NCBI RefSeq assembly: GCF_050920415.1
Contig: NZ_CP169309.1
Strand: one strand, 5' to 3'
DNA length: 64,000 bases
Source of the DNA: Escherichia coli
GTDB taxonomy: Bacteria > Pseudomonadota > Gammaproteobacteria > Enterobacterales > Enterobacteriaceae
Position 1 is the stretch's first letter; each line of letters begins with the position of its first letter. The notes beneath the pieces were generated by a model. It searched no databases, was not told the origin of the DNA, and saw only the letters and a list, made by a program, of their open reading frames with translations. This document shows positions 30,628-55,107 of this stretch, in pieces. A program made the translations under genes and the position numbers.

Positions 30628-30694
30628 TAGCCTGCGCAGACAAATCCGGCTTCCCAGCGTAAGATAATTGTTCATTTCGCGCAGTGGAGTCGGT

Positions 30695-31395: not shown

Positions 31396-32439
31396 ATGCG
31401 CTATCGCATTTTTCTTCTCTTTTTTTTCGCTTTATTGCCGACGTCTTTGGTGTGGGCGGCACCAGCGCAACGGGCATTTTCCGACTGGCAGGTCACCTGT
31501 AATAATCAAAATTTCTGTGTGGCGCGCAATACGGGCAATCATAATGGACTGGTGATGACCCTGAGCCGCAGCGCCGGGGCGCATACCGATGCCGTTTTAC
31601 GTATTGAGCGCGGCGGGTTGAAGTCGCCGGATGCGTCGGAAGGGGAGATAGCGCCACGGCTGCTGTTAGATGGCGAGCCGTTGGCGTTGAGTGGTAACAC
31701 GTGGCGGATTTCACCATGGTTATTAGTAACCGATGATACGACAACCATCACCGCGTTTTTGCAGATGATTCAGGAAGGGAAAGCGATCACCTTACGCGAC
31801 GGCGATCAGACCATTTCACTGAGTGGCTTAAAAGCAGCGTTGTTGTTTATTGATGCCCAGCAAAAGCGCCTCGGCAGTGAAACCGCGTGGATCAAGAAAG
31901 GGGACGAACCGCCGCTCAGCGTACCGCCAGCGCCTGCGCTAAAAGAGGTCGCGGTAGTGAACCCGACGCCGACCCCACTTTCTCGTGAAGAACGTAACGA
32001 TTTGCTGGATTACGGTAACTGGCGGATGAATGGTCTGCGCTGTTCGCTTGATCCGTTGCGTCGTGAAGTGAGCGTTACGGCGCTGACCGACGATAAAGCA
32101 TTAATGATGATTAGCTGTGAAGCAGGCGCGTATAACACCATTGATCTTGCGTGGATTGTGTCGCGTAAAAAGCCACTGGCTTCGCGCCCGGTACGGTTGC
32201 GTTTGCCGTTCAACAACGGTCAGGAGACCAATGAACTCGAACTGATGAACGCAACATTCGATGAAAAATCGCGTGAACTGGTGACCTTAGCGAAAGGGCG
32301 AGGATTAAGCGATTGTGGCATTCAGGCGCGCTGGCGCTTTGACGGTCAGCGTTTTCGCCTGGTGCGTTACGCTGCAGAACCCACCTGCGATAACTGGCAT
32401 GGACCAGACGCCTGGCCCACGTTGTGGATCACCCGTTAA
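31396..32439 (+). CDS. ypfG: DUF1176 family secreted protein
   Basis: 347-aa ORF with N-terminal signal peptide (MRYRIFLLFFFALLPTSLVWA). Confidence 0.85.
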   Translation: MRYRIFLLFFFALLPTSLVWAAPAQRAFSDWQVTCNNQNFCVARNTGNHNGLVMTLSRSAGAHTDAVLRIERGGLKSPDASEGEIAPRLLLDGEPLALSGNTWRISPWLLVTDDTTTITAFLQMIQEGKAITLRDGDQTISLSGLKAALLFIDAQQKRLGSETAWIKKGDEPPLSVPPAPALKEVAVVNPTPTPLSREERNDLLDYGNWRMNGLRCSLDPLRREVSVTALTDDKALMMISCEAGAYNTIDLAWIVSRKKPLASRPVRLRLPFNNGQETNELELMNATFDEKSRELVTLAKGRGLSDCGIQARWRFDGQRFRLVRYAAEPTCDNWHGPDAWPTLWITR

Positions 32440-32460
32440 ACATAATAGCGGGAACATGTC

Positions 32461-32552
32461 AGCCTGATAAGACGCGTCAGGCCGGATAAGACGCGGTAGG
32501 CCGGATAAGACGCGTCAGCGTCGCATCCGGCAATCAGCATCCGGCGATCACC
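32461..32552. repeat. REP element cluster
   Basis: Three tandem GATAAGACGCG-containing REP units followed by GCATCCGGC repeats between convergent ypfG and tktB. Confidence 0.7.
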
Positions 32553-32553
32553 A

Positions 32554-38387: not shown

Positions 38388-38723
38388 ATGGATAAAGAAC
38401 GCATCATTCAGGAATTTGTGCCCGGCAAACAGGTCACACTGGCGCATCTCATTGCGCATCCCGGCGAAGAACTGGCGAAGAAAATCGGCGTTCCGGATGC
38501 GGGCGCAATCGGCATTATGACGCTAACTCCCGGCGAAACGGCGATGATCGCCGGTGATTTAGCACTGAAAGCTGCCGATGTGCATATCGGTTTCCTCGAC
38601 CGTTTTAGCGGCGCACTAGTGATTTATGGCTCGGTGGGCGCAGTAGAAGAAGCGTTATCACAAACCGTCAGTGGTTTAGGTCGTTTATTAAATTATACGC
38701 TTTGTGAAATGACCAAAAGTTAA
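38388..38723 (+). CDS. eutS: Ethanolamine microcompartment shell protein (BMC)
   Basis: Starts [21 protein letters not shown]; 111 aa; first gene of eut operon. Confidence 0.9.
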
Positions 38724-38735
38724 TACGAGGCATTC

Positions 38736-39215
38736 ATGAAACGAATTGCGTTTGTGGGTACCGTCGGGGCAGGAAAAACAACGTTATTTAATGCGTTGCA
38801 GGGGAATTATACCCTCGCCAGAAAAACACAGGCCGTGGAATTTAATGATAAGGGTGATATTGATACGCCGGGTGAATATTTTAGCCATCCCCGCTGGTAT
38901 CACGCCTTAATTACCACGCTACAGGATGTGGACATGCTGATTTATGTCCACGGCGCGAATGACCCGGAAAGCCGATTGCCTGCCGGGTTGCTGGATATTG
39001 GTGCCAGCAAACGGCAAATCGCCGTCATCAGTAAAACGGACATGCCGGATGCTGACGTCGCAGCAACGCGAAAGTTATTGCTTGAAACTGGTTTTGAAGA
39101 GCCGATTTTCGAGCTAAACAGCCACGACCCGCAAAGCGTGCAGCAACTGGTGGATTATCTGGCATCTCTCACCGAACAGGAGGAAGCAGGTGAAAAAACT
39201 CATCACAGCGAATGA
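38736..39215 (+). CDS. eutP: Ethanolamine utilisation GTPase-like protein
   Basis: 159 aa; P-loop GTVGAGKTT. Confidence 0.9.
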   Translation: MKRIAFVGTVGAGKTTLFNALQGNYTLARKTQAVEFNDKGDIDTPGEYFSHPRWYHALITTLQDVDMLIYVHGANDPESRLPAGLLDIGASKRQIAVISKTDMPDADVAATRKLLLETGFEEPIFELNSHDPQSVQQLVDYLASLTEQEEAGEKTHHSE

Positions 39216-39891
39216 TATTCGTGAAGCACATGCGCGCGGCGAACAGGCAATGTCTGTGGTTCTGCGCGCCAGCATTATTACCCCGGAAGCCCGCGAAGTG
39301 GCGGACTTGCTGGGGTTTACCATCACCGAATGCACTGAATCGACGCCAGTAGCGGCATCTGTTCCCGTCAGCGTGCCTGCCGATAAAACTGAAAGCCAGC
39401 GTATCCGCGAAACCATCATCGCCCAGCTGCCGGAAGGCCAGTTTACCGAAAGCCTGGTCGCGCAGCTGATGGAAAAAGTGATAAAGGAAAAACAGTCGCT
39501 GGAGCAGGGTGCAATGCAGCCGAGTTTTAAATCGGTGACCGGCAAAGGCGGCATCAAAGTTATTGATGGCAGCAGCGTGAAGTTTGGTCGTTTCGATGGC
39601 GCGGAACCGCACTGCGTAGGCTTGACTGATCTCGTGACCGGAGACGACGGCAGCAGCATGGCCGCCGGTTTTATGCAGTGGGAGAACGCCTTCTTCCCGT
39701 GGACCCTGAACTACGACGAAATCGACATGGTACTGGAAGGGGAGCTTCATGTTCGCCATGAAGGCGAAACCATGATCGCTAAAGCAGGCGACGTGATGTT
39801 TATCCCGAAAGGTTCCAGCATCGAATTTGGTACGACATCCAGCGTGAAATTCCTGTATGTCGCCTGGCCGGCTAACTGGCAATCCCTATGA
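39190..39891 (+). CDS. eutQ: Ethanolamine utilisation cupin protein / acetate kinase
   Basis: 233-aa ORF overlapping eutP 3' end. Confidence 0.9.
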   Translation: MKKLITANDIREAHARGEQAMSVVLRASIITPEAREVADLLGFTITECTESTPVAASVPVSVPADKTESQRIRETIIAQLPEGQFTESLVAQLMEKVIKEKQSLEQGAMQPSFKSVTGKGGIKVIDGSSVKFGRFDGAEPHCVGLTDLVTGDDGSSMAAGFMQWENAFFPWTLNYDEIDMVLEGELHVRHEGETMIAKAGDVMFIPKGSSIEFGTTSSVKFLYVAWPANWQSL

Positions 39892-40691
39892 AAGATTTCA
39901 TCACCGAAGCATGGCTAAGAGCGAACCATACGCTCAGCGAAGGCGCAGAGATCCATCTCCCTGCGGACAGTCGCCTGACGCCCTCTGCCCGGGAGTTACT
40001 GGAAAGCCGCCATCTGCGCATCAAGTTTATTGACGAGCAGGGCCGCCTGTTTGTTGACGATGAACAGCAGCAGCTACAGCCCGTTCACGTGCTGACCAGT
40101 AGTGATGAACATCCGCAGGCGTGCTGCGAACTGTGTCACCAGCCAGTGGCGAAAAAGCCGGACACGCTGACTCACCTGTCGGCGGAAAAAATGGTCGCCA
40201 AAAGCGATCCGCGCCTGGGTTTTCGCGCTGTTCTCGACAGCACCATTGCGCTGGTAGTGTGGCTGCAAATTGAACTGACAGAACCGTGGCAGCCGTGGCT
40301 GGCGGACATCCGTTCGCGTCTTGGCAACATTATGCGTGCCGATGTGTTGGGCGAACCGCTGGGCTGCCAGGCGATTGTCGGGTTTTCTGACGAAGATCTG
40401 CATCGACTTTCTCACCAGCCACTGCGTTATCTCGACCACGATCATCTGGTGCCGGAAGCCAGCCACGGGCGCGATGCGGCGTTGCTGAATCTGCTACGCA
40501 CCAAAGTGCGGGAAACCGAAACCGTCGCGGCGCAGGTGTTTATTACCCGTAGTTTTGAAGTATTACGCCCGGACATCTTGCAGGCGCTGAACCGCCTTTC
40601 CAGCACGGTTTACGTGATGATGATTTTGAGCGTAACGAAGCAGCCGCTAACGGTGAAGCAGATCCAACAACGACTGGGGGAAACGCAATGA
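39888..40691 (+). CDS. eutT: Ethanolamine utilisation cobalamin adenosyltransferase
   Basis: 267-aa ORF; 4-nt overlaps with eutQ and eutD. Confidence 0.9.
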
Positions 40692-41704
40692 TTATTGAAC
40701 GTTGTCGTGAACTGGCGTTGCGAGCGCCCGCCAGAGTGGTTTTTCCTGATGCGTTAGACCAACGCGTGCTGAAAGCCGCGCAATATCTGTATCAACAAAG
40801 TCTGGCGACGCCCGTTCTTATCGCCAATCCGTTTGAACTTCGCCAGTTTGCGCTCAGCCACGGCGTGGCGATGGACGGGCTACTGGTGATTGATCCTCGT
40901 AGCAACCTCGCAATGCGGGAAGAATTTGCTGACCGCTGGCAGGCCCGTGCGGGAGATAAAACGCCGTCGGATGCGCTGGAAAAACTTACCGATCCACTAA
41001 TGTTCGCCGCTGCGATGGTTAGCGCTGGTAAAGCGGATGTCTGTATTGCAGGCAACCTCTCTTCAACGGCAAATGTACTACGTGCCGGATTACGCGTTAT
41101 CGGCTTGCAGCCTGGCTGTAAAACGCTCTCCTCCATTTTCCTGATGCTGCCACAGTACAGCGGTCCAGCATTGGGCTTTGCCGATTGCAGCGTAGTGCCA
41201 CAGCCGACGGCGGCGCAGTTGGCGGATATCGCGCTTGCCAGCGCCGAAACCTGGCGAGCCATCACCGGAGAAGAGCCGCGCGTGGCGATGTTGTCGTTTT
41301 CCAGTAACGGCAGCGCCCGTCACCCCTGCGTTGCCAACGTGCAGCAAGCGACAGAAATCGTCCGTGAGCGCGCACCAAAGCTGGTCGTCGATGGCGAGTT
41401 GCAGTTTGACGCCGCCTTTGTGCCGGAAGTGGCGGCGCAAAAAGCGCCAGCCAGCCCGCTACAAGGCAAAGCCAATGTGATGGTTTTTCCGTCGCTGGAG
41501 GCGGGAAATATTGGCTACAAAATCGCACAACGACTTGGCGGATATCGTGCCGTCGGGCCATTGATACAAGGACTTGCCGCGCCGATGCACGATCTCTCTC
41601 GTGGTTGTAGCGTGCAGGAAATTATCGAGCTGGCGCTGGTGGCAGCCGTGCCGCGTCAGACAAAAGTGAACCGCGAAAGCAGTTTACAAACACTGGTTGA
41701 ATGA
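40688..41704 (+). CDS. eutD: Phosphotransacetylase (ethanolamine utilisation)
   Basis: 338-aa Pta-family ORF. Confidence 0.9.
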
Positions 41705-41742
41705 ACGGTCCCGTTCTGGACCCCTATAAAGAGGAAAACACA

Positions 41743-42036
41743 ATGGAAGCATTAGGAATGATCGAAACCCGGGGCCTGGTTGCACTGATTGAGGCTTCTG
41801 ATGCGATGGTGAAAGCTGCGCGCGTCAAACTGGTTGGTGTTAAGCAGATTGGCGGCGGCCTGTGTACTGCCATGGTTCGCGGTGATGTTGCAGCCTGTAA
41901 AGCCGCGACCGATGCCGGTGCCGCAGCGGCACAGCGTATCGGTGAACTGGTATCCGTACATGTTATTCCGCGTCCGCACGGCGATCTGGAAGAGGTCTTC
42001 CCGATCGGCCTGAAAGGCGATAGCAGCAACCTGTAA
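41743..42036 (+). CDS. eutM: Microcompartment shell protein (BMC hexamer)
   Basis: Starts [26 protein letters not shown] (BMC domain); 97 aa. Confidence 0.9.
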
Positions 42037-42142
42037 TCACCCTGTGTGACGTCGATTCGGGCGTCACGCTCTCTCCTTTTTCAGTTTACCTTCCGCGGAG
42101 GGTAGGGGGAGCTTTTACCTGAAATACGCCACGGAGGCGGGT

Positions 42143-42430
42143 ATGAAACTGGCAGTCGTCACTGGACAAATTGTTTGTACCGTACGCCATCACGGACTGG
42201 CGCATGACAAATTGCTGATGGTGGAAATGATTGATCCACAAGGTAATCCTGACGGGCAATGCGCCGTCGCCATCGACAATATTGGCGCGGGAACCGGGGA
42301 GTGGGTGTTGCTGGTGAGTGGCAGTTCCGCCCGCCAGGCGCATAAAAGCGAAACGTCACCGGTCGATCTGTGCGTGATTGGCATCGTCGATGAGGTGGTC
42401 TCTGGCGGTCAGGTAATTTTCCACAAATAA
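42143..42430 (+). CDS. eutN: Microcompartment vertex protein (EutN/CcmL)
   Basis: 95-aa ORF starting MKLAVVTGQIVCTVRHHGL. Confidence 0.9.
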   Translation: MKLAVVTGQIVCTVRHHGLAHDKLLMVEMIDPQGNPDGQCAVAIDNIGAGTGEWVLLVSGSSARQAHKSETSPVDLCVIGIVDEVVSGGQVIFHK

Positions 42431-42441
42431 GGCAGAACATC

Positions 42442-43845
42442 ATGAATCAACAGGATATTGAACAGGTGGTGAAAGCGGTACTGCTGAAAATGCAAAGCAG
42501 TGACACGTCGCCCGCCGCCGTTCATGAGATGGGCGTTTTTGCTTCCCTGGATGACGCTGTTGCGGCAGCCAAAATTGCCCAGCAAGGGTTAAAAAGCGTG
42601 GCAATGCGCCAGTTAGCCATTGCTGCCATTCGTGAAGCAGGCGAAAAACACGCCAGAGATTTAGCGGAACTTGCCGTCAGTGAAACGGGTATGAGCCGCG
42701 TAGAAGATAAATTTGCCAAAAACGTCGCTCAGGCACGCGGTACGCCAGGCGTTGAGTGCCTCTCTCCACAGGTGCTGACCGGTGACAACGGCCTGACTTT
42801 AATTGAAAACGCGCCCTGGGGCGTGGTGGCTTCGGTGACGCCTTCCACTAACCCGGCGGCAACCGTAATTAATAACGCCATCAGCCTGATTGCCGCGGGC
42901 AACAGCGTCATTTTTGCCCCGCATCCGGCGGCGAAAAAAGTCTCTCAACGGGCTATTACGTTGCTCAACCAGGCGATTGTTGCCGCAGGCGGGCCGGAAA
43001 ACTTACTGGTTACTGTGGCAAATCCAGATATCGAAACCGCGCAACGTTTGTTCAAGTTCCCGGGTATCGGCCTGCTGGTGGTGACCGGCGGCGAAGCGGT
43101 AGTGGAAGCGGCGCGCAAACACACCAATAAACGTCTGATTGCCGCAGGTGCTGGCAACCCGCCGGTGGTGGTGGATGAAACCGCCGACCTCGCCCGTGCC
43201 GCTCAGTCTATCGTCAAAGGCGCTTCTTTCGATAACAACATCATTTGTGCCGATGAAAAGGTACTGATTGTTGTTGATAGCGTAGCCGATGAACTGATGC
43301 GTCTGATGGAAGGCCAGCACGCGGTGAAACTGACCGCAGAACAGGCGCAGCGACTGCAACCGGTGTTGCTGAAAAATATCGACGAGCGCGGAAAAGGCAC
43401 CGTCAGCCGTGACTGGGTGGGTCGCGATGCGGCGAAAATCGCGGCGGCAATCGGCCTGAACGTGCCGCAAGAAACGCGCTTGCTGTTTGTAGAAACCCCC
43501 GCAGAACATCCGTTTGCCGTGACCGAACTGATGATGCCAGTGCTGCCGGTCGTGCGCGTCGCCAACGTGGCGGATGCCATTGCGCTGGCGGTGAAACTGG
43601 AAGGCGGTTGCCACCACACGGCGGCAATGCACTCGCGCAATATCGAGAACATGAACCAAATGGCGAACGCCATTGATACCAGTATTTTCGTTAAGAACGG
43701 ACCGTGCATTGCCGGGCTGGGGCTGGGCGGGGAAGGCTGGACCACGATGACCATCACTACGCCAACCGGTGAAGGGGTAACCAGCGCGCGTACGTTTGTC
43801 CGTCTGCGTCGCTGTGTATTAGTCGATGCGTTTCGCATTGTTTAA
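42442..43845 (+). CDS. eutE: Acetaldehyde dehydrogenase (CoA-acetylating)
   Basis: 467-aa aldehyde dehydrogenase family ORF. Confidence 0.9.
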   Translation: MNQQDIEQVVKAVLLKMQSSDTSPAAVHEMGVFASLDDAVAAAKIAQQGLKSVAMRQLAIAAIREAGEKHARDLAELAVSETGMSRVEDKFAKNVAQARGTPGVECLSPQVLTGDNGLTLIENAPWGVVASVTPSTNPAATVINNAISLIAAGNSVIFAPHPAAKKVSQRAITLLNQAIVAAGGPENLLVTVANPDIETAQRLFKFPGIGLLVVTGGEAVVEAARKHTNKRLIAAGAGNPPVVVDETADLARAAQSIVKGASFDNNIICADEKVLIVVDSVADELMRLMEGQHAVKLTAEQAQRLQPVLLKNIDERGKGTVSRDWVGRDAAKIAAAIGLNVPQETRLLFVETPAEHPFAVTELMMPVLPVVRVANVADAIALAVKLEGGCHHTAAMHSRNIENMNQMANAIDTSIFVKNGPCIAGLGLGGEGWTTMTITTPTGEGVTSARTFVRLRRCVLVDAFRIV

Positions 43846-43855
43846 GGAGTAACCG

Positions 43856-44692
43856 ATGGCGCACGACGAACAATGGCTTACCCCGCGGCTGCAAACGGCG
43901 GCAACGCTGTGTAACCAGACGCCCGCCGCGTCGGAATCTCCGCTGTGGCTGGGGGTAGATCTGGGCACCTGCGATGTGGTGTCGATGGTTGTCGACTGCG
44001 ACGGTCAGCCGGTGGCGGTATGTCTCGACTGGGCCGATGTGGTCCGCGACGGCATCGTCTGGGATTTCTTCGGTGCTGTCACCATTGTTCGTCGCCATCT
44101 CGATACCCTTGAGCAGCAATTTGGTCGCCGTTTTAGCCATGCGGCGACCTCATTTCCTCCTGGTACGGACCCGCGTATTTCCATCAACGTGCTGGAGTCT
44201 GCCGGGCTGGAAGTGAGCCATGTGCTTGATGAGCCAACCGCAGTCGCGGATCTACTGCAACTGGACAACGCCGGTGTAGTGGATATTGGCGGCGGCACTA
44301 CCGGAATTGCCATCGTGAAAAAGGGCAAGGTGACTTATTCAGCGGATGAAGCGACCGGCGGACATCACATTTCTCTGACTCTCGCCGGAAATCGCCGTAT
44401 TTCGCTGGAAGAGGCAGAGCAGTACAAGCGCGGTCACGGTGACGAGATTTGGCCTGCGGTGAAGCCGGTGTACGAAAAAATGGCGGACATTGTTGCCCGG
44501 CATATTGAAGGGGAGGGCATTACTGATTTATGGCTGGCGGGCGGCTCTTGTATGCAACCGGGCGTGGCGGAACTGTTTCGCAAACAATTCCCGGCGTTAC
44601 AGGTGCATTTACCGCAGCACAGTTTGTTTATGACCCCGCTGGCGATCGCCAGTAGCGGGCGAGAGAAAGCGGAGGGGCTATATGCAAAATGA
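43856..44692 (+). CDS. eutJ: Ethanolamine utilisation chaperone-like protein (actin/Hsp70 fold)
   Basis: 278-aa ORF. Confidence 0.9.
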   Translation: MAHDEQWLTPRLQTAATLCNQTPAASESPLWLGVDLGTCDVVSMVVDCDGQPVAVCLDWADVVRDGIVWDFFGAVTIVRRHLDTLEQQFGRRFSHAATSFPPGTDPRISINVLESAGLEVSHVLDEPTAVADLLQLDNAGVVDIGGGTTGIAIVKKGKVTYSADEATGGHHISLTLAGNRRISLEEAEQYKRGHGDEIWPAVKPVYEKMADIVARHIEGEGITDLWLAGGSCMQPGVAELFRKQFPALQVHLPQHSLFMTPLAIASSGREKAEGLYAK

Positions 44693-45869
44693 ATTGCAGA
44701 CCGCGCTCTTTCAGGCGTTCGATACCCTGAATCTGCAACGGGTAAAAACATTTAGCGTTCCACCGGTGACGCTTTGCGGTCCGGGCGCGGTGAGCAGTTG
44801 TGGGCAGCAAGCGCAAACGCGTGGGCTGAAACATCTGTTCGTGATGGCAGACAGCTTTTTGCATCAGGCGGGGATGACCGCCGGGCTGACGCGCAGTCTG
44901 GCAGTAAAAGGCATCGCCATGACGCTCTGGCCGTGTCCGGTGGGCGAACCGTGCATCACTGACGTGTGTGCAGCCGTGGCGCAGTTGCGTGAATCAGGCT
45001 GTGATGGGGTGATCGCGTTTGGCGGTGGCTCGGTGCTGGATGCGGCAAAAGCCGTGGCGTTGCTGGTAACGAATCCCGATAGCACGCTGGCAGAAATGTC
45101 AGAAACCAGCGTTCTGCAACCGCGCCTGCCGTTGATTGCCATTCCAACTACCGCCGGAACCGGCTCTGAAACCACCAATGTAACGGTGATTATCGACGCG
45201 GTGAGCGGGCGCAAGCAGGTGTTAGCACATGCCTCGTTGATGCCGGATGTGGCGATTCTCGACGCCGCGCTGACCGAAGGTGTGCCGTCGCATGTCACGG
45301 CAATGACCGGTATCGACGCGTTAACTCATGCTATTGAAGCGTACAGCGCGCTGAACGCTACACCGTTTACAGACAGCCTGGCGATTGGCGCAATTGCGAT
45401 GATTGGTAAATCACTGCCGAAAGCAGTGGGCTACGGTCATGACCTTGCCGCGCGCGAGAGTATGTTGCTCGCATCATGCATGGCGGGAATGGCATTTTCC
45501 AGTGCCGGACTTGGGTTATGTCACGCGATGGCGCATCAGCCGGGGGCGGCGCTGCATATTCCGCACGGACTGGCGAACGCCATGCTGCTGCCCACGGTGA
45601 TGGAGTTTAACCGGATGGTCTGTCGCGAACGGTTTAGTCAGATTGGTCGGGCGCTGCGAACTAAAAAATCCGACGATCGTGATGCTATTAACGCGGTAAG
45701 TGAGCTGATTGCGGAAGTCGGGATTGGTAAACGGCTGGGCGATGTTGGCGCGACATCTGCGCATTACGGTGCATGGGCGCAGGCTGCGCAGGACGATATT
45801 TGTCTGCGTAGCAACCCGCGTACTGCCAGCCTGGAGCAGATCGTCGGCCTGTACGCGGCGGCGCAATAA
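44682..45869 (+). CDS. eutG: Iron-containing alcohol dehydrogenase
   Basis: 395-aa ORF; Fe-ADH family. Confidence 0.9.
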   Translation: MQNELQTALFQAFDTLNLQRVKTFSVPPVTLCGPGAVSSCGQQAQTRGLKHLFVMADSFLHQAGMTAGLTRSLAVKGIAMTLWPCPVGEPCITDVCAAVAQLRESGCDGVIAFGGGSVLDAAKAVALLVTNPDSTLAEMSETSVLQPRLPLIAIPTTAGTGSETTNVTVIIDAVSGRKQVLAHASLMPDVAILDAALTEGVPSHVTAMTGIDALTHAIEAYSALNATPFTDSLAIGAIAMIGKSLPKAVGYGHDLAARESMLLASCMAGMAFSSAGLGLCHAMAHQPGAALHIPHGLANAMLLPTVMEFNRMVCRERFSQIGRALRTKKSDDRDAINAVSELIAEVGIGKRLGDVGATSAHYGAWAQAAQDDICLRSNPRTASLEQIVGLYAAAQ

Positions 45870-45870
45870 A

Positions 45871-46057
<187 letters not shown>

Positions 46058-46085
46058 AAATAACAACTAACAGGGAGTAAAGGCG

Positions 46086-47312
46086 ATGGGAATTAACGAA
46101 ATCATCATGTACATCATGATGTTCTTTATGCTGATAGCTGCCGTGGACAGGATCCTGTCGCAGTTCGGCGGTTCTGCTCGTTTCCTCGGTAAGTTCGGTA
46201 AAAGTATCGAAGGATCCGGCGGCCAGTTCGAAGAAGGCTTTATGGCAATGGGCGCACTGGGCCTGGCGATGGTCGGTATGACCGCACTGGCACCAGTTCT
46301 GGCCCACGTACTTGGGCCGGTGATTATCCCGGTTTACGAAATGCTCGGTGCTAACCCATCGATGTTCGCCGGAACACTGCTGGCGTGCGACATGGGCGGC
46401 TTCTTCCTCGCGAAAGAGCTGGCGGGCGGCGATGTGGCAGCGTGGCTATACTCTGGGTTAATTCTCGGATCGATGATGGGGCCAACGATTGTGTTTTCCA
46501 TTCCGGTGGCGCTCGGCATTATCGAACCTTCTGACCGTCGTTATCTGGCGCTCGGCGTGCTGGCGGGCATTGTGACCATTCCAATTGGCTGTATCGCTGG
46601 AGGTCTGGTAGCTATGTATTCCGGTGTGCAGATCAACGGGCAGCCGGTGGAATTCACCTTTGCGCTTATCCTGATGAATATGATCCCGGTACTTATCGTC
46701 GCGGTGCTGGTGGCGCTGGGGCTGAAATTCATCCCGGAAAAAATGATCAACGGCTTCCAGATCTTCGCCAAATTCCTCGTTGCATTGATCACCCTCGGTC
46801 TTGCCGCTGCGGTAGTGAAATTCCTCCTTGGCTGGGAACTGATCCCCGGTCTGGATCCGATCTTCATGGCTCCAGGCGACAAACCCGGTGAAGTGATGCG
46901 CGCCATTGAAGTTATCGGTTCTATCTCCTGCGTTCTGTTAGGGGCGTATCCGATGGTGCTGCTGCTGACACGCTGGTTTGAAAAACCGCTGATGAGCGTC
47001 GGTAAAGTGCTGAATATGAACAATATCGCGGCAGCCGGCATGGTGGCAACGCTTGCCAACAACATCCCGATGTTTGGCATGATGAAGCAGATGGATACCC
47101 GCGGCAAAGTCATCAACTGTGCCTTCGCCGTTTCCGCTGCTTTCGCCCTGGGTGACCACTTAGGCTTCGCCGCTGCCAACATGAACGCCATGATCTTCCC
47201 GATGATTGTCGGCAAGTTGATCGGCGGCGTAACGGCGATTGGCGTGGCGATGATGCTGGTGCCAAAAGAAGACGCGACCGCGGCTAAAACCGAAGCGGAG
47301 GCACAATCGTGA
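46086..47312 (+). CDS. eutH: Ethanolamine permease
   Basis: 408-aa polytopic membrane ORF. Confidence 0.9.
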   Translation: MGINEIIMYIMMFFMLIAAVDRILSQFGGSARFLGKFGKSIEGSGGQFEEGFMAMGALGLAMVGMTALAPVLAHVLGPVIIPVYEMLGANPSMFAGTLLACDMGGFFLAKELAGGDVAAWLYSGLILGSMMGPTIVFSIPVALGIIEPSDRRYLALGVLAGIVTIPIGCIAGGLVAMYSGVQINGQPVEFTFALILMNMIPVLIVAVLVALGLKFIPEKMINGFQIFAKFLVALITLGLAAAVVKFLLGWELIPGLDPIFMAPGDKPGEVMRAIEVIGSISCVLLGAYPMVLLLTRWFEKPLMSVGKVLNMNNIAAAGMVATLANNIPMFGMMKQMDTRGKVINCAFAVSAAFALGDHLGFAAANMNAMIFPMIVGKLIGGVTAIGVAMMLVPKEDATAAKTEAEAQS

Positions 47313-48712
47313 ACACTCGCCAGCTACTGAGCGTCGGTATCGATATCGGCACTACCACCACCCAGGTGATCTTCTCCCACCTGGAGCTGGTTAACCGTGC
47401 GGCGGTGTCGCAGGTGCCGCGCTACGAATTCATCAAACGCGAAATTAGCTGGCAAAGCCCGGTGTTCTTTACCCCTGTCGATAAACAGGGCGGTTTAAAA
47501 GAAGAGGAACTGAAATCCTTAATCCTCGAGCAATATCAGGCTGCGGGCATTGCGCCGGAAAGTGTGGATTCCGGTGCCATCATCATCACCGGCGAAAGCG
47601 CGAAAACCCGCAATGCTCGCCCGGCGGTGATGACGCTCTCTCAGTCGCTGGGCGATTTTGTCGTTGCCAGCGCTGGGCCGCATCTCGAATCCGTGATCGC
47701 CGGTCACGGTGCCGGGGCGCAAACCCTTTCTGAACAACGGTTATGTCGGGTACTGAATATCGACATCGGCGGTGGCACCGCGAACTACGCTTTGTTCGAT
47801 GCCGGAAAAATCAGCGGCACTGCCTGCCTTAACGTCGGCGGCCGCCTGCTGGAAACCGACAGCCAGGGACGCGTGGTTTACGCTCATATACCGGGGCAGA
47901 TGATTGTGGATGAGTGCTTCGGTGCAGGCACTGACGCCTGTTCACTGACCGGCGCGCAGCTGGTGCAGGTTACCCGGCGGATGGCGGAACTGATTGTCGA
48001 AGTGATTGACGGAACGCTCTCGCCGCTCGCGCAGGCATTGATGCAAACCGGTTTGCTGCCCGCAGGTGTTACGCCCGAAATCATTACGCTTTCTGGCGGC
48101 GTGGGCGAATGTTATCGCCACCAGCCCGCTGACCCGTTCTGTTTTGCCGATATTGGCCCGCTTCTGGCAACGGCGCTGCATGAGCATCCTCGTCTGCGTG
48201 AGATGAACGTGCAGTTTCCAGCGCAAACCGTGCGCGCCACGGTGATTGGCGCAGGCGCACATACCCTTTCGCTCTCTGGCAGCACAATCTGGCTGGAGGG
48301 GGTACAACTGCCGCTGCGCAATTTGCCGGTGGCGATCCCAATTGATGAAACGGATCTGGTGAGTGCCTGGCAACAAGCGCTAATTCAACTGGATCTTTGC
48401 CCCAAAACTGACGCGTACGTGCTGGCGCTTCCCGCCTCGCTGCCTGTGCGTTACGCCGCGGTACTGACGGTCATCAACGCGCTGGTCGATTTCGTCGCGC
48501 GTTTTCCGAATCCGCATCCCCTGCTGGTGGTGGCCGGGCAGGACTTTGGTAAAGCTCTGGGCATGTTGTTGCGTCCACAGCTACAACAACTCCCGTTGGC
48601 AGTCATTGACGAAGTGATTGTCCGCGCGGGGGACTATATCGACATTGGTACGCCTCTTTTTGGCGGATCGGTTGTGCCGGTGACGGTGAAATCACTCGCA
48701 TTTCCTTCCTGA
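47309..48712 (+). CDS. eutA: Ethanolamine ammonia-lyase reactivase
   Basis: 467-aa ORF; 4-nt overlap with eutH. Confidence 0.9.
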   Translation: MNTRQLLSVGIDIGTTTTQVIFSHLELVNRAAVSQVPRYEFIKREISWQSPVFFTPVDKQGGLKEEELKSLILEQYQAAGIAPESVDSGAIIITGESAKTRNARPAVMTLSQSLGDFVVASAGPHLESVIAGHGAGAQTLSEQRLCRVLNIDIGGGTANYALFDAGKISGTACLNVGGRLLETDSQGRVVYAHIPGQMIVDECFGAGTDACSLTGAQLVQVTRRMAELIVEVIDGTLSPLAQALMQTGLLPAGVTPEIITLSGGVGECYRHQPADPFCFADIGPLLATALHEHPRLREMNVQFPAQTVRATVIGAGAHTLSLSGSTIWLEGVQLPLRNLPVAIPIDETDLVSAWQQALIQLDLCPKTDAYVLALPASLPVRYAAVLTVINALVDFVARFPNPHPLLVVAGQDFGKALGMLLRPQLQQLPLAVIDEVIVRAGDYIDIGTPLFGGSVVPVTVKSLAFPS

Positions 48713-48723
48713 GGGAACGACTT

Positions 48724-50085
48724 ATGAAACTAAAGACCACATTGTTCGGCAATGTATATCAGTTTAAGGATGTAAAAGAGGTGCTGGCTAAAGCCAACGA
48801 ACTGCGTTCGGGGGATGTGCTGGCGGGCGTTGCAGCGGCAAGCTCACAGGAGCGCGTGGCGGCAAAGCAGGTGTTGTCGGAAATGACCGTAGCGGACATC
48901 CGCAATAATCCGGTGATTGCCTATGAAGATGACTGCGTTACGCGGTTGATTCAGGACGACGTTAACGAAACGGCATACAACCAGATTAAAAACTGGAGCA
49001 TCAGCGAACTGCGTGAGTATGTGCTGAGTGATGAAACCAGCGTTGACGACATTGCTTTTACCCGCAAAGGGCTGACCTCGGAAGTGGTCGCGGCGGTAGC
49101 GAAGATTTGCTCTAACGCGGACCTGATCTACGGCGCGAAGAAAATGCCGGTAATCAAAAAGGCCAATACAACTATTGGTATTCCGGGCACCTTCAGCGCC
49201 CGTTTGCAGCCAAACGATACCCGCGACGACGTGCAAAGTATCGCCGCGCAAATCTACGAAGGGCTTTCTTTCGGGGTGGGCGATGCGGTGATCGGCGTTA
49301 ACCCGGTGACTGACGACGTGGAAAACTTAAGCCGCGTGCTGGATACCATCTATGGCGTGATCGACAAATTCAACATTCCGACCCAGGGCTGCGTGCTGGC
49401 GCACGTTACTACCCAGATTGAAGCGATCCGTCGCGGCGCGCCGGGCGGGCTGATTTTCCAGAGCATCTGCGGCAGCGAAAAAGGGCTGAAAGAATTTGGC
49501 GTGGAGCTGGCGATGCTCGATGAAGCACGCGCAGTGGGCGCAGAGTTTAACCGTATCGCCGGGGAAAACTGCCTCTACTTCGAAACCGGGCAGGGTTCTG
49601 CGCTATCGGCGGGCGCTAACTTCGGTGCAGATCAGGTAACGATGGAAGCGCGTAACTACGGGCTGGCACGTCATTACGATCCGTTTATCGTCAACACCGT
49701 AGTGGGCTTTATTGGGCCAGAGTATCTCTACAACGACCGGCAGATTATCCGTGCGGGCTTAGAAGATCACTTTATGGGCAAACTGAGCGGCATTTCTATG
49801 GGCTGTGACTGCTGCTACACCAACCACGCTGACGCTGACCAGAACCTCAACGAAAACCTGATGATCCTGCTCGCCACCGCAGGCTGTAACTACATCATGG
49901 GGATGCCGCTGGGTGATGACATCATGCTCAACTACCAGACTACGGCCTTCCACGACACCGCCACTGTGCGTCAGTTACTCAACCTGCGCCCGTCACCGGA
50001 GTTTGAACGCTGGCTGGAAAGCATGGGCATTATGGCAAACGGTCGCCTGACCAAACGGGCGGGCGATCCGTCACTGTTCTTCTGA
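48724..50085 (+). CDS. eutB: Ethanolamine ammonia-lyase large subunit
   Basis: 453-aa ORF starting MKLKTTLFGNVYQFKDVKEVLAKANE; only 11 bp after eutA. Confidence 0.95.
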   Translation: MKLKTTLFGNVYQFKDVKEVLAKANELRSGDVLAGVAAASSQERVAAKQVLSEMTVADIRNNPVIAYEDDCVTRLIQDDVNETAYNQIKNWSISELREYVLSDETSVDDIAFTRKGLTSEVVAAVAKICSNADLIYGAKKMPVIKKANTTIGIPGTFSARLQPNDTRDDVQSIAAQIYEGLSFGVGDAVIGVNPVTDDVENLSRVLDTIYGVIDKFNIPTQGCVLAHVTTQIEAIRRGAPGGLIFQSICGSEKGLKEFGVELAMLDEARAVGAEFNRIAGENCLYFETGQGSALSAGANFGADQVTMEARNYGLARHYDPFIVNTVVGFIGPEYLYNDRQIIRAGLEDHFMGKLSGISMGCDCCYTNHADADQNLNENLMILLATAGCNYIMGMPLGDDIMLNYQTTAFHDTATVRQLLNLRPSPEFERWLESMGIMANGRLTKRAGDPSLFF

Positions 50086-50105
50086 TGACGCGGAGATAAC
50101 ACATC

Positions 50106-50993
50106 ATGGATCAAAAACAGATTGAAGAAATTGTACGCAGCGTGATGGCGTCAATGGGACAAGCGGCCCCCGCGCCGTCAGAAGCAAAATGCGCCACTAC
50201 CACCTGTGCAGCACCGGTGACCTCGGAAAGCTGCGCGCTGGATTTAGGTTCCGCAGAAGCAAAAGCGTGGATTGGCGTTGAAAACCCGCATCGCGCAGAC
50301 GTATTAACAGAACTGCGCCGCAGCACCGTGGCTCGCGTCTGTACCGGTCGTGCCGGTCCGCGTCCGCGTACCCAGGCGTTGCTGCGTTTCCTGGCCGATC
50401 ACTCTCGTTCGAAAGACACCGTACTGAAAGAAGTGCCGGAGGAGTGGGTGAAAGCGCAGGGCTTGCTGGAAGTCCGCTCTGAAATTAGCGACAAAAATCT
50501 CTATCTGACTCGCCCGGATATGGGCCGCCGCTTGTGTGCAGAGGCTGTTGAAGCGCTGAAAGCGCAGTGTGTTGCCAATCCGGACGTACAGGTGGTTATT
50601 TCCGATGGTCTATCTACTGATGCGATCACCGTGAACTATGAAGAGATTCTGCCACCGCTGATGGCGGGCCTGAAACAGGCCGGGTTGAAAGTCGGCACAC
50701 CGTTCTTTGTGCGTTACGGTCGCGTGAAGATTGAAGATCAGATTGGCGAACTTCTTGGCGCGAAAGTGGTGATCCTGCTGGTGGGTGAACGTCCGGGGTT
50801 GGGGCAGTCAGAAAGTCTCTCCTGCTACGCCGTTTACTTGCCGCGTATGGCAACCACCGTTGAGGCCGACCGTACCTGTATCTCTAACATTCACCAGGGC
50901 GGCACGCCGCCGGTTGAAGCCGCAGCCGTCATTGTGGATTTGGCGAAACGTATGCTGGAGCAGAAAGCATCCGGCATCAACATGACCCGATAA
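50106..50993 (+). CDS. eutC: Ethanolamine ammonia-lyase small subunit
   Basis: 295-aa ORF. Confidence 0.95.
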
Positions 50994-51002
50994 GGAGGCA
51001 TC

Positions 51003-51662
51003 ATGCCAGCTTTAGATTTGATTCGACCGTCGGTAACCGCCATGCGGGTGATTGCCTCTGTTAACGCCGAATTTGCGCGTGAACTGAAATTGCCGCCGCA
51101 TATTCGTAGCCTCGGGCTGATTTCTGCTGATTCCGATGACGTCACCTACATTGCGGCTGACGAAGCGACCAAGCAGGCGATGGTTGAAGTCGTGTATGGT
51201 CGCTCGCTGTATGCGGGAGCTGCACACGGGCCGTCACCGACTGCCGGTGAAGTGCTGATTATGCTCGGGGGGCCAAACCCGGCGGAAGTGCGTGCCGGTC
51301 TGGATGCGATGGTTGCGCATATTGAAAATGGCGCTGCTTTCCAGTGGGCTAATGATGCAGAAAACACAGCCTTCCTGGCGCATGTCGTTTCGCGTACCGG
51401 CTCTTATCTCTCATCAACCGCCGGGATCACGCTTGGCGATCCGCTGGCGTATCTGGTGGCACCGCCGCTGGAAGCGACCTACGGCATTGATGCAGCGTTG
51501 AAATCTGCCGACGTGCAGCTGGTGACCTATGTCCCGCCACCGTCTGAAACCAACTACTCGGCAGCATTTTTAACCGGTAGCCAGGCCGCGTGTAAAGCAG
51601 CCTGTAACGCCTTTACCGATGCAGTGCTGGAAATCGCGCGTAATCCAATCCAGCGTGCGTAA
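51003..51662 (+). CDS. eutL: Microcompartment shell protein (tandem BMC)
   Basis: 219-aa ORF. Confidence 0.9.
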
Positions 51663-51674
51663 CGGAGGTTGCCG

Positions 51675-52175
51675 ATGATCAATGCACTGGGATTGCTGGA
51701 AGTGGACGGCATGGTCGCCGCGATAGATGCAGCTGATGCCATGCTCAAAGCAGCTAACGTTCGTCTGCTCAGTCACGAAGTGCTTGACCCTGGTCGCCTA
51801 ACGCTGGTGGTGGAAGGCGATCTGGCGGCGTGTCGTGCGGCGCTGGACGCAGGTTGTGCTGCCGCGATGCGTACCGGGCGTGTCATCAGCCGTAAGGAGA
51901 TCGGTCGGCCAGACGATGACACCCAGTGGCTGGTTACTGGCTTTAACCGCCAACCGAAGCAACCCGTAAAGGAACCCGACGCGCCAGTTATCGTCGCGGA
52001 ATCTGCTGACGAGTTGTTGGCGCTGTTAACATCAGTACGTCAGGGAATGACGGCAGGAGAAGTGGCTGCCCACTTTGGCTGGCCGCTGGAAAAAGCCAGA
52101 AATGCGCTCGAACAGCTCTTTTCTGCCGGGACGTTACGTAAACGCAGTAGTCGTTATCGTCTCAAGCCCCATTAA
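51675..52175 (+). CDS. eutK: Microcompartment shell protein
   Basis: Starts MINALGLLEVDGMVAAIDAADAMLKAA (BMC domain); 166 aa. Confidence 0.9.
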   Translation: MINALGLLEVDGMVAAIDAADAMLKAANVRLLSHEVLDPGRLTLVVEGDLAACRAALDAGCAAAMRTGRVISRKEIGRPDDDTQWLVTGFNRQPKQPVKEPDAPVIVAESADELLALLTSVRQGMTAGEVAAHFGWPLEKARNALEQLFSAGTLRKRSSRYRLKPH

Positions 52176-52220
52176 CCTGTCGGAGGTGCCGGGTGTCCTA
52201 CAACACCCGGCATTAACATC

Positions 52221-53273
52221 ATGAAAAAGACCCGTACAGCCAATTTGCACCATCTTTATCATGAACCCTTACCCGAAAACCTGAAGCTCACGCCGAAGGT
52301 CGAAGTGGATAATGTTCATCAACGACAGACAACGGATGTCTATGAACATGCTTTGACGATTACCGCCTGGCAGCAGATTTACGATCAGCTGCATCCGGGC
52401 AAGTTTCATGGTGAATTTACGGAAATTCTACTCGATGATATTCAGGTTTTTCGTGAATACACCGGTCTGGCGCTGCGTCAGTCGTGCCTGGTCTGGCCGA
52501 ACTCGTTCTGGTTTGGCATTCCGGCGACGCGCGGTGAGCAGGGATTTATCGGTTCGCAATGTCTGGGAAGCGCAGAAATTGCGACACGCCCTGGAGGAAC
52601 CGAGTTTGAATTAAGTACGCCGGACGATTACACGATCCTTGGCGTGGTGCTTTCTGAAGATGTCATCACCCGTCAGGCTAACTTTTTGCATAACCCGGAA
52701 AGGGTGCTGCATATGTTACGTAACCAGTCGGCGCTGGAAGTGAAAGAGCAGCATAAAGCCGCGCTGTGGGGCTTTGTCCAACAGGCTCTGGCGACATTTT
52801 GCGAGAACCCGGAAAATCTCCATCAGCCTGCAGTGCGAAAAGTGCTGGGGGATAATTTGCTAATGGCGATGGGGGCGATGCTGGAAGAAGCGCAGCCAAT
52901 GGTGACGGCGGAAAGTATCAGCCACCAGAGTTACCGTCGCTTGTTGACCCGCGCGCGTGAATATGTGCTGGAGAATATGTCCGAACCGGTAACCGTGCTG
53001 GATTTGTGCAATCAACTGCATGTCAGCCGCCGCACGCTACAAAACGCGTTTCACGCTCTTTTAGGCATTGGCCCAAACGCGTGGCTGAAACGCATTCGCC
53101 TGAACGCCGTGCGCCGCGAACTGATAAGCCCGTGGTCGCAAAGTACAACGGTCAAAGATGCCGCCATGCAGTGGGGATTCTGGCATCTGGGGCAATTCGC
53201 CACGGATTACCAGCAACTGTTTGCCGAGAAGCCGTCTCTGACGCTACATCAGCGGATGCAGGAACTGGAGTGA
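52221..53273 (+). CDS. eutR: AraC-family transcriptional activator of eut operon
   Basis: 350-aa ORF with C-terminal AraC-type HTH. Confidence 0.9.
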
Positions 53274-53349
53274 GGGTGAGGGCCGGATGAGGATGGTGTT
53301 TGATCCGGTCCATAGTGAAGTTACAAATTACGTTGAATTGCTATGTATT

Positions 53350-53667
53350 TTATTGCCCAACGGGATAGGCGATAAACAAACCGACAATTGTCAGAATACA
53401 CGCCAGCAGGAATACCAACATACAATTTACGCGCTTTCGCGAAATTTTAAATAAATAGCAAAATAGTGTTGTTACCACGATCACTACCGGGATAGTCATA
53501 AAATTAATAACGATGAGTGCTATCAATCCAAAACTTGCTCCTCCACCGTGGGGAATAAAAATGTGTTCTTCAAAATAAACTTCTATAGCAAATGCCAGCA
53601 CACATCCCAGAAAACTCATATCCAGATGAGGGTGCCATTTACTTTCTTTATTTGATGTGTCTGACAT
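53350..53667 (-). CDS. Hypothetical small membrane protein (3 predicted TM helices), accessory
   Basis: 105-aa ORF in markedly AT-rich DNA; GGGAG SD ~9 nt upstream of ATG; hydrophobic segments; no K-12 counterpart at this position that I recognise. Confidence 0.6.
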   Translation of the reverse strand: MSDTSNKESKWHPHLDMSFLGCVLAFAIEVYFEEHIFIPHGGGASFGLIALIVINFMTIPVVIVVTTLFCYLFKISRKRVNCMLVFLLACILTIVGLFIAYPVGQ

Positions 53668-53707
53668 TCTTAAATGCTCCCGTGAGCAAACTGGCGCAAA
53701 ATAATTT

Positions 53708-54970
53708 CTAAGATTGCTGATAAGACGTCGCTGTTGTCCGGCACTCCGGGCAGATAAACGCGTAAATTATCCCTTCGCCATATTGTTCAATATCGGCATA
53801 ATCCAGTTGCGCAAGAAACATCATTGTGTGGGAACATTGCGGACAGAGAGGATATTCCGCGTCCTGAATCCAGGTTGGATGCCCGCCAAGTTGCGAGAAA
53901 GAGACAGGTAAAAATGGGTCTGCGGCAAATAACGGTGACCTAAGGTTTCCCTGTCTCATGCTGTTTACAGGGAGTCGACGCCATTCCGATACATCATCCG
54001 GCAGCCAGGCAGGCGGGATATTTTTTGCAGACAAATGAGCGTTACCCTTTGAGTCCATGTAGCCGAAAATGGTGCTGTAGGCGGTGCAACATTCGCAAGT
54101 CACGACGCGAAAACTGCCGTTATCGCTAAGACCCGTTGCCTTCAGGTCAACGTCGAAAAGATTTGTTAGGGGCAATGCGCACTTTGGACAGGTATCGCTG
54201 CGTTCATCAACAACACGCAAAGCTTCGCAAGACCCGGTGCTTTTCATCTCCAGATGAAAACATTGAGGAAAATAGAGATTACGCCTTTGATCTTCAGCGG
54301 TTAACTCCCAACCGGCCTCATGCGCATATTCTTCTGGCGCGATGTAAAGTGAACTGCGCCACAGCGGCGGGTTATTGCGCCAGTAGGCAAAACGTTCAAC
54401 AACAACGTCATCCCCAATCCATGCCAGACATTGCAGAATACAATTTCTGTTTTCTGCATCATCCTCAACCCGTTCTAACAGCGTATCGCGAACATCCGCT
54501 GGGGCGCGGTGGAAAGGCAGAGGAGAATAAGCGTCTAAATCATCATAAGAGATCCACTCTCGTAAATATGCATCCAGATTTGCCTGGGTAAACGCCGCCA
54601 GACAAAGACAAATCTCCTGAGCGTGTTCATATTCACCAGACGCAAAGCGTTCTGTGGCGTAATCAGCCATTTGCTGCGCTTGCTCGGCGGTCAACTGTTG
54701 ATACAGGGCATCGGTGGGAACGGGGCAGGGAGTCCAGTCGATTAACGCATCGAATTTCCGCGGTTGGTGAATTAATTTAAGCATGGCAACCGGATCGCTT
54801 AACCCAGCAAACGCATTCACGATCTTTTTGTTTTTCTTGATATATTCGTCGTGCTCACGCTGCTGTTGGGCCTGCTCGCAGGGCATGCAGTATCCGTTAG
54901 TACGCGCTGCGGTTTCCGGAAGAATGGTTGATGTACAAGCGGGGCTTTTACAGGGAATACGGTGAGTCAT
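53708..54970 (-). CDS. Hypothetical cytoplasmic protein with CxxC zinc-ribbon-like motifs and C-terminal DUF1963 (YwqG-like)-type region, accessory
   Basis: 420-aa ORF with AAGGAG SD 8 nt upstream; C-terminus LGGHPTWIQDAEYPLCPQC...MMFLAQLD...GEGIIYAFICPEC resembles the DUF1963 signature as I recall it; additional CxxC pairs at the N-terminus and mid-protein; absent from K-12 at this position. Confidence 0.7.
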   Translation of the reverse strand: MTHRIPCKSPACTSTILPETAARTNGYCMPCEQAQQQREHDEYIKKNKKIVNAFAGLSDPVAMLKLIHQPRKFDALIDWTPCPVPTDALYQQLTAEQAQQMADYATERFASGEYEHAQEICLCLAAFTQANLDAYLREWISYDDLDAYSPLPFHRAPADVRDTLLERVEDDAENRNCILQCLAWIGDDVVVERFAYWRNNPPLWRSSLYIAPEEYAHEAGWELTAEDQRRNLYFPQCFHLEMKSTGSCEALRVVDERSDTCPKCALPLTNLFDVDLKATGLSDNGSFRVVTCECCTAYSTIFGYMDSKGNAHLSAKNIPPAWLPDDVSEWRRLPVNSMRQGNLRSPLFAADPFLPVSFSQLGGHPTWIQDAEYPLCPQCSHTMMFLAQLDYADIEQYGEGIIYAFICPECRTTATSYQQS

Positions 54971-55107
54971 AGAGGCGCTCCTTGCCTGAGGATATTAAGT
55001 CGAAAGAGATTATTATTAGATATTAGGGTGTCACTATGGCACACAAATTAAACAGAATTAATTTCAAGCCACAAACATAGGGTTATTTTTCTTTTATTTT
55101 CATGATA

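Follow-up and report, generated by a model that had tools for sequence, protein, structure and literature searches.

The eut operon and the eutA-eutB junction

The stretch of DNA analyzed in this study (hereafter the window; 64,000 nt) carries a eut operon on its plus strand at 38388..53273. The operon comprises 17 genes, all of full length, in the order eutSPQTDMNEJGHABCLKR (Table 1). An earlier note on this DNA had claimed a contiguous 17-gene operon in this order, and NCBIfam matches, the order and strand of the open reading frames (ORFs), and PGAP annotation all agreed with the claim. Gene lengths equaled those of MG1655 for the 16 genes compared (eutP to eutR). PGAP flagged no eut pseudogenes in a near-identical record, which has 5 differences from the window in 64000 positions. 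Only one of these SNPs falls within the operon, at 42694 in eutE, and it does not disrupt the 467-aa ORF.

Table 1. Features of the eut locus in the window (all NCBIfam matches cited in the table are above the curated cutoff)
Feature	Coordinates	Strand	Description
eutS	38388-38723	+	End-to-end NCBIfam match
eutP	38736-39215	+	End-to-end NCBIfam match
eutQ	39190-39891	+	End-to-end NCBIfam match
eutT	39888-40691	+	End-to-end NCBIfam match
eutD	40688-41704	+	End-to-end NCBIfam match
eutM	41743-42036	+	End-to-end NCBIfam match
eutN	42143-42430	+	End-to-end NCBIfam match
eutE	42442-43845	+	End-to-end NCBIfam match
eutJ	43856-44692	+	End-to-end NCBIfam match
eutG	44682-45869	+	End-to-end NCBIfam match
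eutH	46086-47312	+	End-to-end NCBIfam match
eutA	47309-48712	+	Ethanolamine ammonia-lyase reactivase, 467 aa; GTG start overlapping eutH stop
Synonymous-site island	48622-48822	+	Near-invariant, about 200 nt, straddling the eutA/eutB junction
attB core CTTCCTGA	48705-48712	+	Unoccupied; formed by the final 8 nt of eutA, stop codon included
eutA-eutB spacer GGGAACGACTT	48713-48723	+	11 nt, read directly from the sequence
eutB	48724-50085	+	Ethanolamine ammonia-lyase large subunit, 453 aa; ATG start
eutC	50106-50993	+	End-to-end NCBIfam match
eutL	51003-51662	+	End-to-end NCBIfam match
eutK	51675-52175	+	End-to-end NCBIfam match
eutR	52221-53273	+	End-to-end NCBIfam match

The ORFs on the two sides of the junction were identified as EutA (NCBIfam NF007991, 1062.8 bits; cutoff 799) and EutB (NCBIfam NF011649, 664.7 bits; cutoff 554), with a match over the whole profile in both cases. 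The eutA stop and eutB start given in the earlier note coincided with those in the ORF list, which leaves a spacer of 11 nt. The same spacer occurs in MG1655 (on the eutB side) and in all 35 species representatives examined. The Shine-Dalgarno sequence of eutB (GAGG, 48711-48714) overlaps the stop codon of eutA. A scan of both strands of 48300-49100 revealed no sigma-70-like promoter, and the plus strand contained no terminator-like site in this range. Given the 11-nt distance between eutA and eutB and the overlap of the eutB ribosome-binding site with the eutA stop codon, eutBCLK can be co-transcribed with eutS to eutA; the transcript could originate from an inducible promoter upstream of eutS.

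Comparison with CPZ-55 and other IntZ-family elements

The earlier note had stated that K-12 carries CPZ-55 between eutA and eutB. The MG1655 annotation confirmed this statement: CPZ-55 (intZ and yffL to yffS) occupies 2558691..2565480, with the eutB start on one side and the eutA stop on the other, and intZ adjoins eutB. The element measures 6,790 bp and its genes lie on the opposite strand, so that 6,801 nt separate the eutA stop from the eutB ATG in MG1655, compared with 11 nt in the window. The genes on both sides are colinear in the two loci and have identical lengths.

We aligned the window with MG1655 across the junction by using blastn and located the attachment site, the check that the earlier note had proposed. 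MG1655 was colinear with the window on both sides, and the two alignments overlapped by 23 bp at 48690-48712, which corresponds to a wider, imperfect att similarity. The core of the site, CTTCCTGA, is duplicated at both ends of CPZ-55 in K-12, whereas the window holds a single copy at the junction, with the native spacer and eutB immediately after it. No duplicated core bracketing foreign DNA between eutA and eutB was present in the window. The only other plus-strand copy of CTTCCTGA in the window, at 12680 in the hyf operon region, is unrelated. The integrase of CPZ-55 and the 8-bp direct repeat on its two sides identify the element as an insertion. The K-12 arrangement is the derived one, in which a tyrosine-integrase element recombined into the core and split the operon. 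The same 8-bp duplication has been reported as TCAGGAAG on the other strand, with a prevalence of 8% (PMC6379469), and the site has been described as a "prophage insertion hot spot" (PMC6652756).

Full CPZ-55 was detected in only 213 of the complete E. coli genomes, nearly always at 99% identity or more, and the carriers among the matches listed were mostly K-12 laboratory strains and their derivatives. Approximately 200 genomes carry IntZ-like integrases with 80-90% identity to intZ and different cargo; both of the two cases inspected adjoin eutB. In NZ_CP076704, the eutA stop and the eutB ATG are 13,003 nt apart, and the 13,003-bp element, which encodes an IntZ homologue, is bracketed by two copies of the same core. 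This element and that of strain U71 (PMC6652756) use the att core that is intact in the window, which has no such element.

Search for phage and mobile genes in the window

The 64-kb window yielded no integrase, phage, IS, or tRNA gene. The PGAP annotation of the near-identical record lists chromosomal genes only, with no integrase among them. All CPZ-55 genes and the genes of the related 13-kb element were compared with the window by using tblastn and blastn, and only chance-level matches were obtained (E >= 0.05); with IntZ and its L005 homologue as tblastn queries, the best E-value was 2.4. Two unnamed ORFs at 53350-54970 had no PHROGs or PADLOC match. The earlier note's claim that the window lacks integrase and phage genes is thus upheld by the PGAP annotation and the chance-level searches. 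Phage or integrase sequence at the junction, the one observation that the note had named as contrary to its reading, was looked for and not found.

Lineage of the source strain

The identity of the window to MG1655 was 95.1-96.1% over approximately 20 kb, with the divergence spread evenly, and only 5 SNPs in 64000 positions separated it from strain MFDS1022581. For positions 14000-34000, the best 18 records listed matched at 98.5-100% and included the previously published clade I strains EC42405 and 2013C-4282, and the next records listed did not exceed 95.8%; these values are local identities and not whole-genome ANI. Membership of clade I has been defined by more than 98.3% ANI to clade I and approximately 96% to E. 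coli sensu stricto (Okuno et al. 2023, PMC10100065). On local identity, the host groups with the strains of Escherichia cryptic clade I, a sister lineage of E. coli sensu stricto, and probably belongs to it. The earlier note's description of the source as non-K-12 was correct but understated.

The absence of CPZ-55 alone does not prove a non-K-12 origin, because the record H115, which is labeled K-12, has a contiguous junction. The existence of such a record also favors the alternative that the window comes from a K-12 derivative from which CPZ-55 was deleted, by engineering or by curing. This alternative is refuted by the evenly distributed divergence of approximately 5% from MG1655, which proves a non-K-12 origin. 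Two further observations stand against the alternative: the window has a two-gene insert of 1.8 kb between eutR and hemF that is absent from MG1655, and it agrees with MFDS1022581 at all but those 5 positions.

Frequency and ancestral state of the contiguous junction

Of 5426 complete E. coli genomes, 4964 (about 91%) had a contiguous eutA-eutB junction, as did 35 of 35 species representatives from Citrobacter, Klebsiella, Salmonella, Escherichia, and other genera. The 26-mer spanning the junction was exact in 34 of these representatives, across at least eight enterobacterial genera, and the 35th differed by one base. In the Salmonella arizonae, Citrobacter, and Klebsiella representatives, the end of eutA, the spacer, and the start of eutB were nucleotide-identical to those of the window. 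The E. coli frequency and the conserved 26-mer indicate that the uninterrupted state is both ancestral and the majority state. The term "ancestral" in the earlier note is therefore supported by the outgroup genera and the E. coli frequency, together with the insertion marks of the K-12 element.

The same data bear on whether contiguity in the window might be an assembly artefact, with an inserted element collapsed or omitted. An independent complete genome shows the same junction, as do the 4964 contiguous E. coli genomes, and the junction matches the conserved 26-mer without any irregularity; we consider an artefact to be almost inconceivable. Alternatively, the lineage may once have held an IntZ-type element that was lost by precise integrase-mediated excision, which restored contiguity secondarily. 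The site is a recurrent target, as the IntZ-like integrases in approximately 200 genomes indicate, and precise excision leaves no scar and restores an identical attB. Nevertheless, no remnant, duplicated core, or phage-derived base was present at 48690-48723, the 26-mer is exact in 34 of 35 representatives, and parsimony favors no event; past excision is thus highly improbable. The observed gene content, contiguity, position of the att core, population frequency, and outgroup state strongly support the reading that the window holds the native, uninterrupted long enterobacterial eut operon with one unoccupied attB copy in a probable clade I host, and that the K-12 arrangement is derived.

A synonymous-site conservation island at the junction

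Across 30 non-Escherichia loci, third codon positions had an identity of 0.95 over the final 90 nt of eutA and 0.91 over the initial 90 nt of eutB, compared with an operon background of 0.61 (sd 0.11). A second near-invariant stretch was found at the eutB/eutC junction (49998-50159), and the synonymous sites of both stretches were almost invariant over at least eight enterobacterial genera.

No Rfam match at E <= 1 was obtained within the eutA/eutB island; the only Rfam matches in the scanned range were to the REP-type naRNA4, in the eutG-eutH spacer. RNA folding of 48632-48823 revealed no strong thermodynamic signal (plus strand, z = -0.13; minus strand, z = -1.62). The end of eutA might pair with the eutB Shine-Dalgarno sequence in a 7-bp hairpin at 48701-48717; this hairpin appeared in the MFE structure only and was absent from the centroid. 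Long-range pairing between the two islands was rejected (z = -0.2; rank 33 of 39 among natural segments). An antisense ORF at 48603-48752 (49 aa, TTG start) overlaps the island and, as its second positions fall on the third positions of eutA, could constrain the latter. This ORF is not a sufficient cause, since the conservation extends beyond its start codon and since the eutB third positions are also its own third positions, so that their conservation is not explained. Homogenization by element-mediated transfer around attB is disfavored by the sharp left border of the junction island and by the similar island at eutB/eutC, where no att site is known. Searches of the literature yielded nothing relevant on a known element or internal promoter at the eutA/eutB junction.

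Both stretches might conceivably mark an undescribed cis-acting nucleic-acid element, a suggestion that we offer tentatively. Candidates may include an mRNA structure that couples or meters the translation of the lyase subunits, a processing site, or an antisense transcript. The synonymous conservation could also explain why IntZ-type elements chose this site as attB. The island is the only item of this analysis that might repay further work.

Implications for ethanolamine utilization

The empty site is an ordinary finding that was already known: the 8-bp duplication, the hot-spot status, and the lost eutB induction of K-12 have all been published. In K-12, eutB induction and microcompartments are lost through the insertion; by contrast, Nissle 1917 and Salmonella have an intact operon and grow on ethanolamine (PMC7617246). 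The operons of Salmonella enterica, Nissle 1917, and UPEC share the 17 genes, order, and strand of the window, and eutA and eutB are contiguous, as here; for the long Salmonella-type operon, PMC7617246 cites Kofoid et al. 1999. The window differs from this type in its probable cryptic clade I host, approximately 5% divergent from K-12, and in the rare two-gene insert after eutR. By analogy, the operon of the source strain would be expressed as one unit and would support ethanolamine catabolism and microcompartment formation, as in Nissle 1917, UPEC, and Salmonella. Its induction by ethanolamine and AdoCbl through EutR would likewise be expected from strains of the same architecture (PMC7617246).

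In practice, these findings serve as a sanity check of the annotation, with an intact operon, an empty attB, and a source that is probably clade I. The K-12 reference is atypical at the eut locus. The strain has the genetic capacity to catabolize ethanolamine with microcompartments, and this trait has been linked to fitness in the gut and the urinary tract.

Organization of the eut operon

The ORF list and the NCBIfam profiles showed that the coordinates and gene identities first noted for eutA and eutB were correct. EutJ, EutG, and EutH were the upstream neighbors of this pair and EutC, EutL, EutK, and EutR the downstream ones, and EutS, EutP, EutQ, EutT, EutD, EutM, EutN, and EutE were placed farther upstream. 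All of the eut matches were end-to-end on the profile and above the curated cutoff, and the operon extended over 38388-53273 in the gene order eutSPQTDMNEJGHABCLKR. The GAGG Shine-Dalgarno sequence of eutB overlapped the eutA stop codon. Around the junction, neither strand had a sigma-70-like promoter in the promoter scan, and the plus strand had no terminator-like site. Because of this overlap, the 11-nt gap, and the lack of promoter- or terminator-like sites, eutB to eutK could share a transcript with the upstream genes and be translated in tandem. Separately, the eutG-eutH spacer (45846-46064) was filled by REP-type repeats, in which Rfam identified naRNA4 copies and blastn an inverted self-match.

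Features of the eut region and of the neighboring insert
Feature	Position	Strand	Description
eutA	47309-48712	+	GTG start, 467 aa; NCBIfam EutA NF007991, 1062.8 bits
eutA-eutB spacer			11 nt, GGGAACGACTT, read from the sequence
eutB	48724-50085	+	ATG start, 453 aa; NCBIfam EutB NF011649, 664.7 bits
naRNA4 (RF02564)	45924-46005		73.4 bits, gathering score 59.5
naRNA4, partial	45846-45905		weaker copy
naRNA4, partial	46024-46064		weaker copy
Insert ORF 1	53350-53667	-	105 aa
Insert ORF 2	53708-54970	-	420 aa

An empty attachment site for CPZ-55

In MG1655 (NC_000913.3), CPZ-55 is annotated at 2558691-2565480, where it fills the interval from the eutB start codon to the eutA stop codon, with intZ and yffL to yffS encoded on the opposite strand from eut; this annotation bears out the earlier note, which had placed the prophage between these genes in K-12. 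We aligned the window with the MG1655 eut region by using blastn and obtained two colinear blocks, one (39193-48712) reaching the eutA stop and the other (48690-53276) beginning just upstream of eutB. Their 23-nt overlap (48690-48712) is an imperfect att repeat. Direct reading of the junctions located the CPZ-55 attachment site at 48705-48712, where the exact shared core, CTTCCTGA, forms the final 8 nt of eutA, stop codon included. The first K-12 copy of the core lies at the end of eutA and the second 11 nt upstream of eutB, adjoining intZ. The junction in the window is an empty attB, since it holds a single core copy followed by the native spacer. The core agrees with the 8-bp target duplication that Ramisetty and Sudhakari (2019, PMC6379469) described for this site, given there for the complementary strand as 5'-TCAGGAAG-3'.

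The earlier statement that no integrase or phage gene occurs anywhere in the window also held. Except for five substitutions (26356, 30633, 36161, 37225, and 42694), the window is identical to 1413861-1477860 of NZ_CP169399.1 (E. coli MFDS1022581), and the PGAP annotation of that interval marks nothing as an integrase, transposase, phage protein, or pseudogene. It lists chromosomal genes only: focB, the hyf operon, bcp, gcvR, dapA, bamC, purC, tmcA, dapE, acrD, narQ, aegA, nudK, tkt, tal, maeB, eut, two unnamed genes, hemF, amiA, ypeA, yfeZYX, pbp4b, and murPQR. Searches of the window with CPZ-55 (9 proteins) and a related element (16 proteins) by tblastn, and with the DNA of both by blastn, yielded no hit with an E value below 0.05, and the window has no tRNA gene.

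Source lineage

The earlier description of the source as a non-K-12 strain was correct but understated. Identity to MG1655 was 95.1-96.1%, with evenly spread divergence. For window positions 14000-34000, the best 18 among the matches listed were at 98.5-100%, and the next listed were at 95.8% or less. Two members of the near group, EC42405 and 2013C-4282, belong to Escherichia cryptic clade I (Okuno et al. 2023, PMC10100065), a clade with an ANI of >98.3% internally and >95.9% to E. coli sensu stricto (PMC10100065). Because the near group holds published clade I strains and all other listed matches fall at or below 95.8%, local identity over the window points to a strain of this deep-branching lineage as the source.

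Between eutR and hemF, the window carries a two-gene insert (53274-55107) that is lacking in MG1655, where these flanking genes are 5 bp apart. One product showed a weak match to DUF1963 at its C terminus (25.2 bits), and the second is hypothetical; neither matched PHROGs or PADLOC. Of 5426 complete E. coli genomes, only 28 have the insert; most of these are of clade I, with a few outside it, such as EPEC E2348/69 at approximately 91% identity.

Occupancy of the junction in E. coli and its ancestral state

The eutA/eutB junction was contiguous in 4964 of the 5426 complete E. coli genomes (91.5%), as defined by at least 80% coverage in one place of a 411-nt query centered on the junction; a 2.8-kb query gave an identical count. 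In 459 further genomes, the 411-nt query matched but was split or partly deleted. Full-length CPZ-55 was found in 213 genomes (212 at ≥99% identity), and the carriers among the matches listed were mostly K-12 laboratory strains and derivatives. Partial matches in 204 more genomes were mostly to an intZ homologue at 80-90% identity. An IntZ-like integrase with different cargo adjoined eutB in both genomes inspected. In NZ_CP076704.1, 13,003 nt (11990-24992) separate the eutA stop from the eutB ATG, flanked by the identical CTTCCTGA core and carrying a gene for an HNH endonuclease along with many hypothetical ones; in NZ_CP024147.1 (14990-24178), the element is followed by IS1, and eutS to eutA are deleted. 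Dadswell et al. (2019, PMC6652756) termed the site a "prophage insertion hot spot," and CPZ-55 was reported at the eut locus in 8% of 638 genomes (PMC6379469). The name "terminase small subunit-like," given to yffO in some annotations, is a hint of a family of satellite-like elements. The eutA and eutB genes are also contiguous in NZ_CM170063.1, a 4.57-Mb genome labelled E. coli K-12; therefore, a missing CPZ-55 alone is not diagnostic of non-K-12 origin.

We ran a degenerate pattern matching eutB codons 8-20 against a set of genomes in which each GTDB species had a single representative. It hit 35 loci, in Citrobacter, Klebsiella, Salmonella enterica subsp. arizonae, Escherichia (including E. 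whittamii), Pluralibacter, Yokenella, Pseudocitrobacter, and Intestinirhabdus. None of them carried an insertion at the junction. The exact 26-mer TTTCCTTCCTGAGGGAACGACTTATG, which runs from the end of eutA through the spacer to the eutB ATG, was present in 34, and the E. whittamii locus differed by one base. Because these 35 loci are uninterrupted and the K-12 element carries an integrase of its own and is flanked by a repeat, contiguous eutA-eutB is ancestral and the K-12 arrangement derived. Together with the 17 NCBIfam matches in order, this bears out the ancestral contiguous 17-gene operon proposed earlier. In Citrobacter koseri NCTC10786, an apparent 1-nt insertion approximately 60 nt upstream of the eutA stop (GGATCGGGTTG versus GGATCGGTTG) would frameshift the eutA end and leaves the junction sequence intact; it may reflect a sequencing error or mark a genuine pseudogene.

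Constrained synonymous sites at the junction

We aligned 30 non-Escherichia loci to the window and scored third-codon-position identity, which had an operon-wide mean of 0.61 (sd 0.11, 60-nt bins). At the eutA/eutB junction, this identity was 0.95 for the final 90 nt of eutA and 0.91 for the initial 90 nt of eutB; it was 0.90 and 0.79 at the eutB/eutC junction and 0.88 at the eutH start (about 46086-46157); most remaining junctions were close to the operon background (0.55-0.81). Around the eutA/eutB and eutB/eutC (49998-50159) junctions, third-codon sites were 90-100% conserved over at least eight enterobacterial genera. The att core lies within the eutA/eutB island (approximately 48622-48822), whose left edge is sharp. 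The island had no Rfam family, no promoter-like site in the promoter scan, and no plus-strand fold-energy signal, with a weak one on the minus strand; a duplex test detected no complementarity with the eutB/eutC island. An antisense 49-aa ORF was rejected as a sufficient cause, as it cannot explain the conservation within eutB. A small hairpin (48701-48717), in which the eutA end pairs with the eutB Shine-Dalgarno sequence, appeared only in the MFE structure, and the sequence is invariant. The default reading is a generic translation-initiation and coupling constraint around highly expressed lyase genes; the Rfam, folding, promoter, duplex, and overlapping-ORF tests did not account for the island.

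Functional implications of the intact operon

In K-12 BW25113, which carries the insertion, eutS and eutR are still inducible, and eutB induction, microcompartments, and growth on ethanolamine are lost; all three are present in Nissle 1917 and Salmonella, in which the operon is intact (PMC7617246). The observation of an uninterrupted operon is confirmed and its interpretation supported. The uninterrupted eut locus is the default, ancestral state, as already published, and we infer that the clade I strain would behave like Nissle 1917 and Salmonella.
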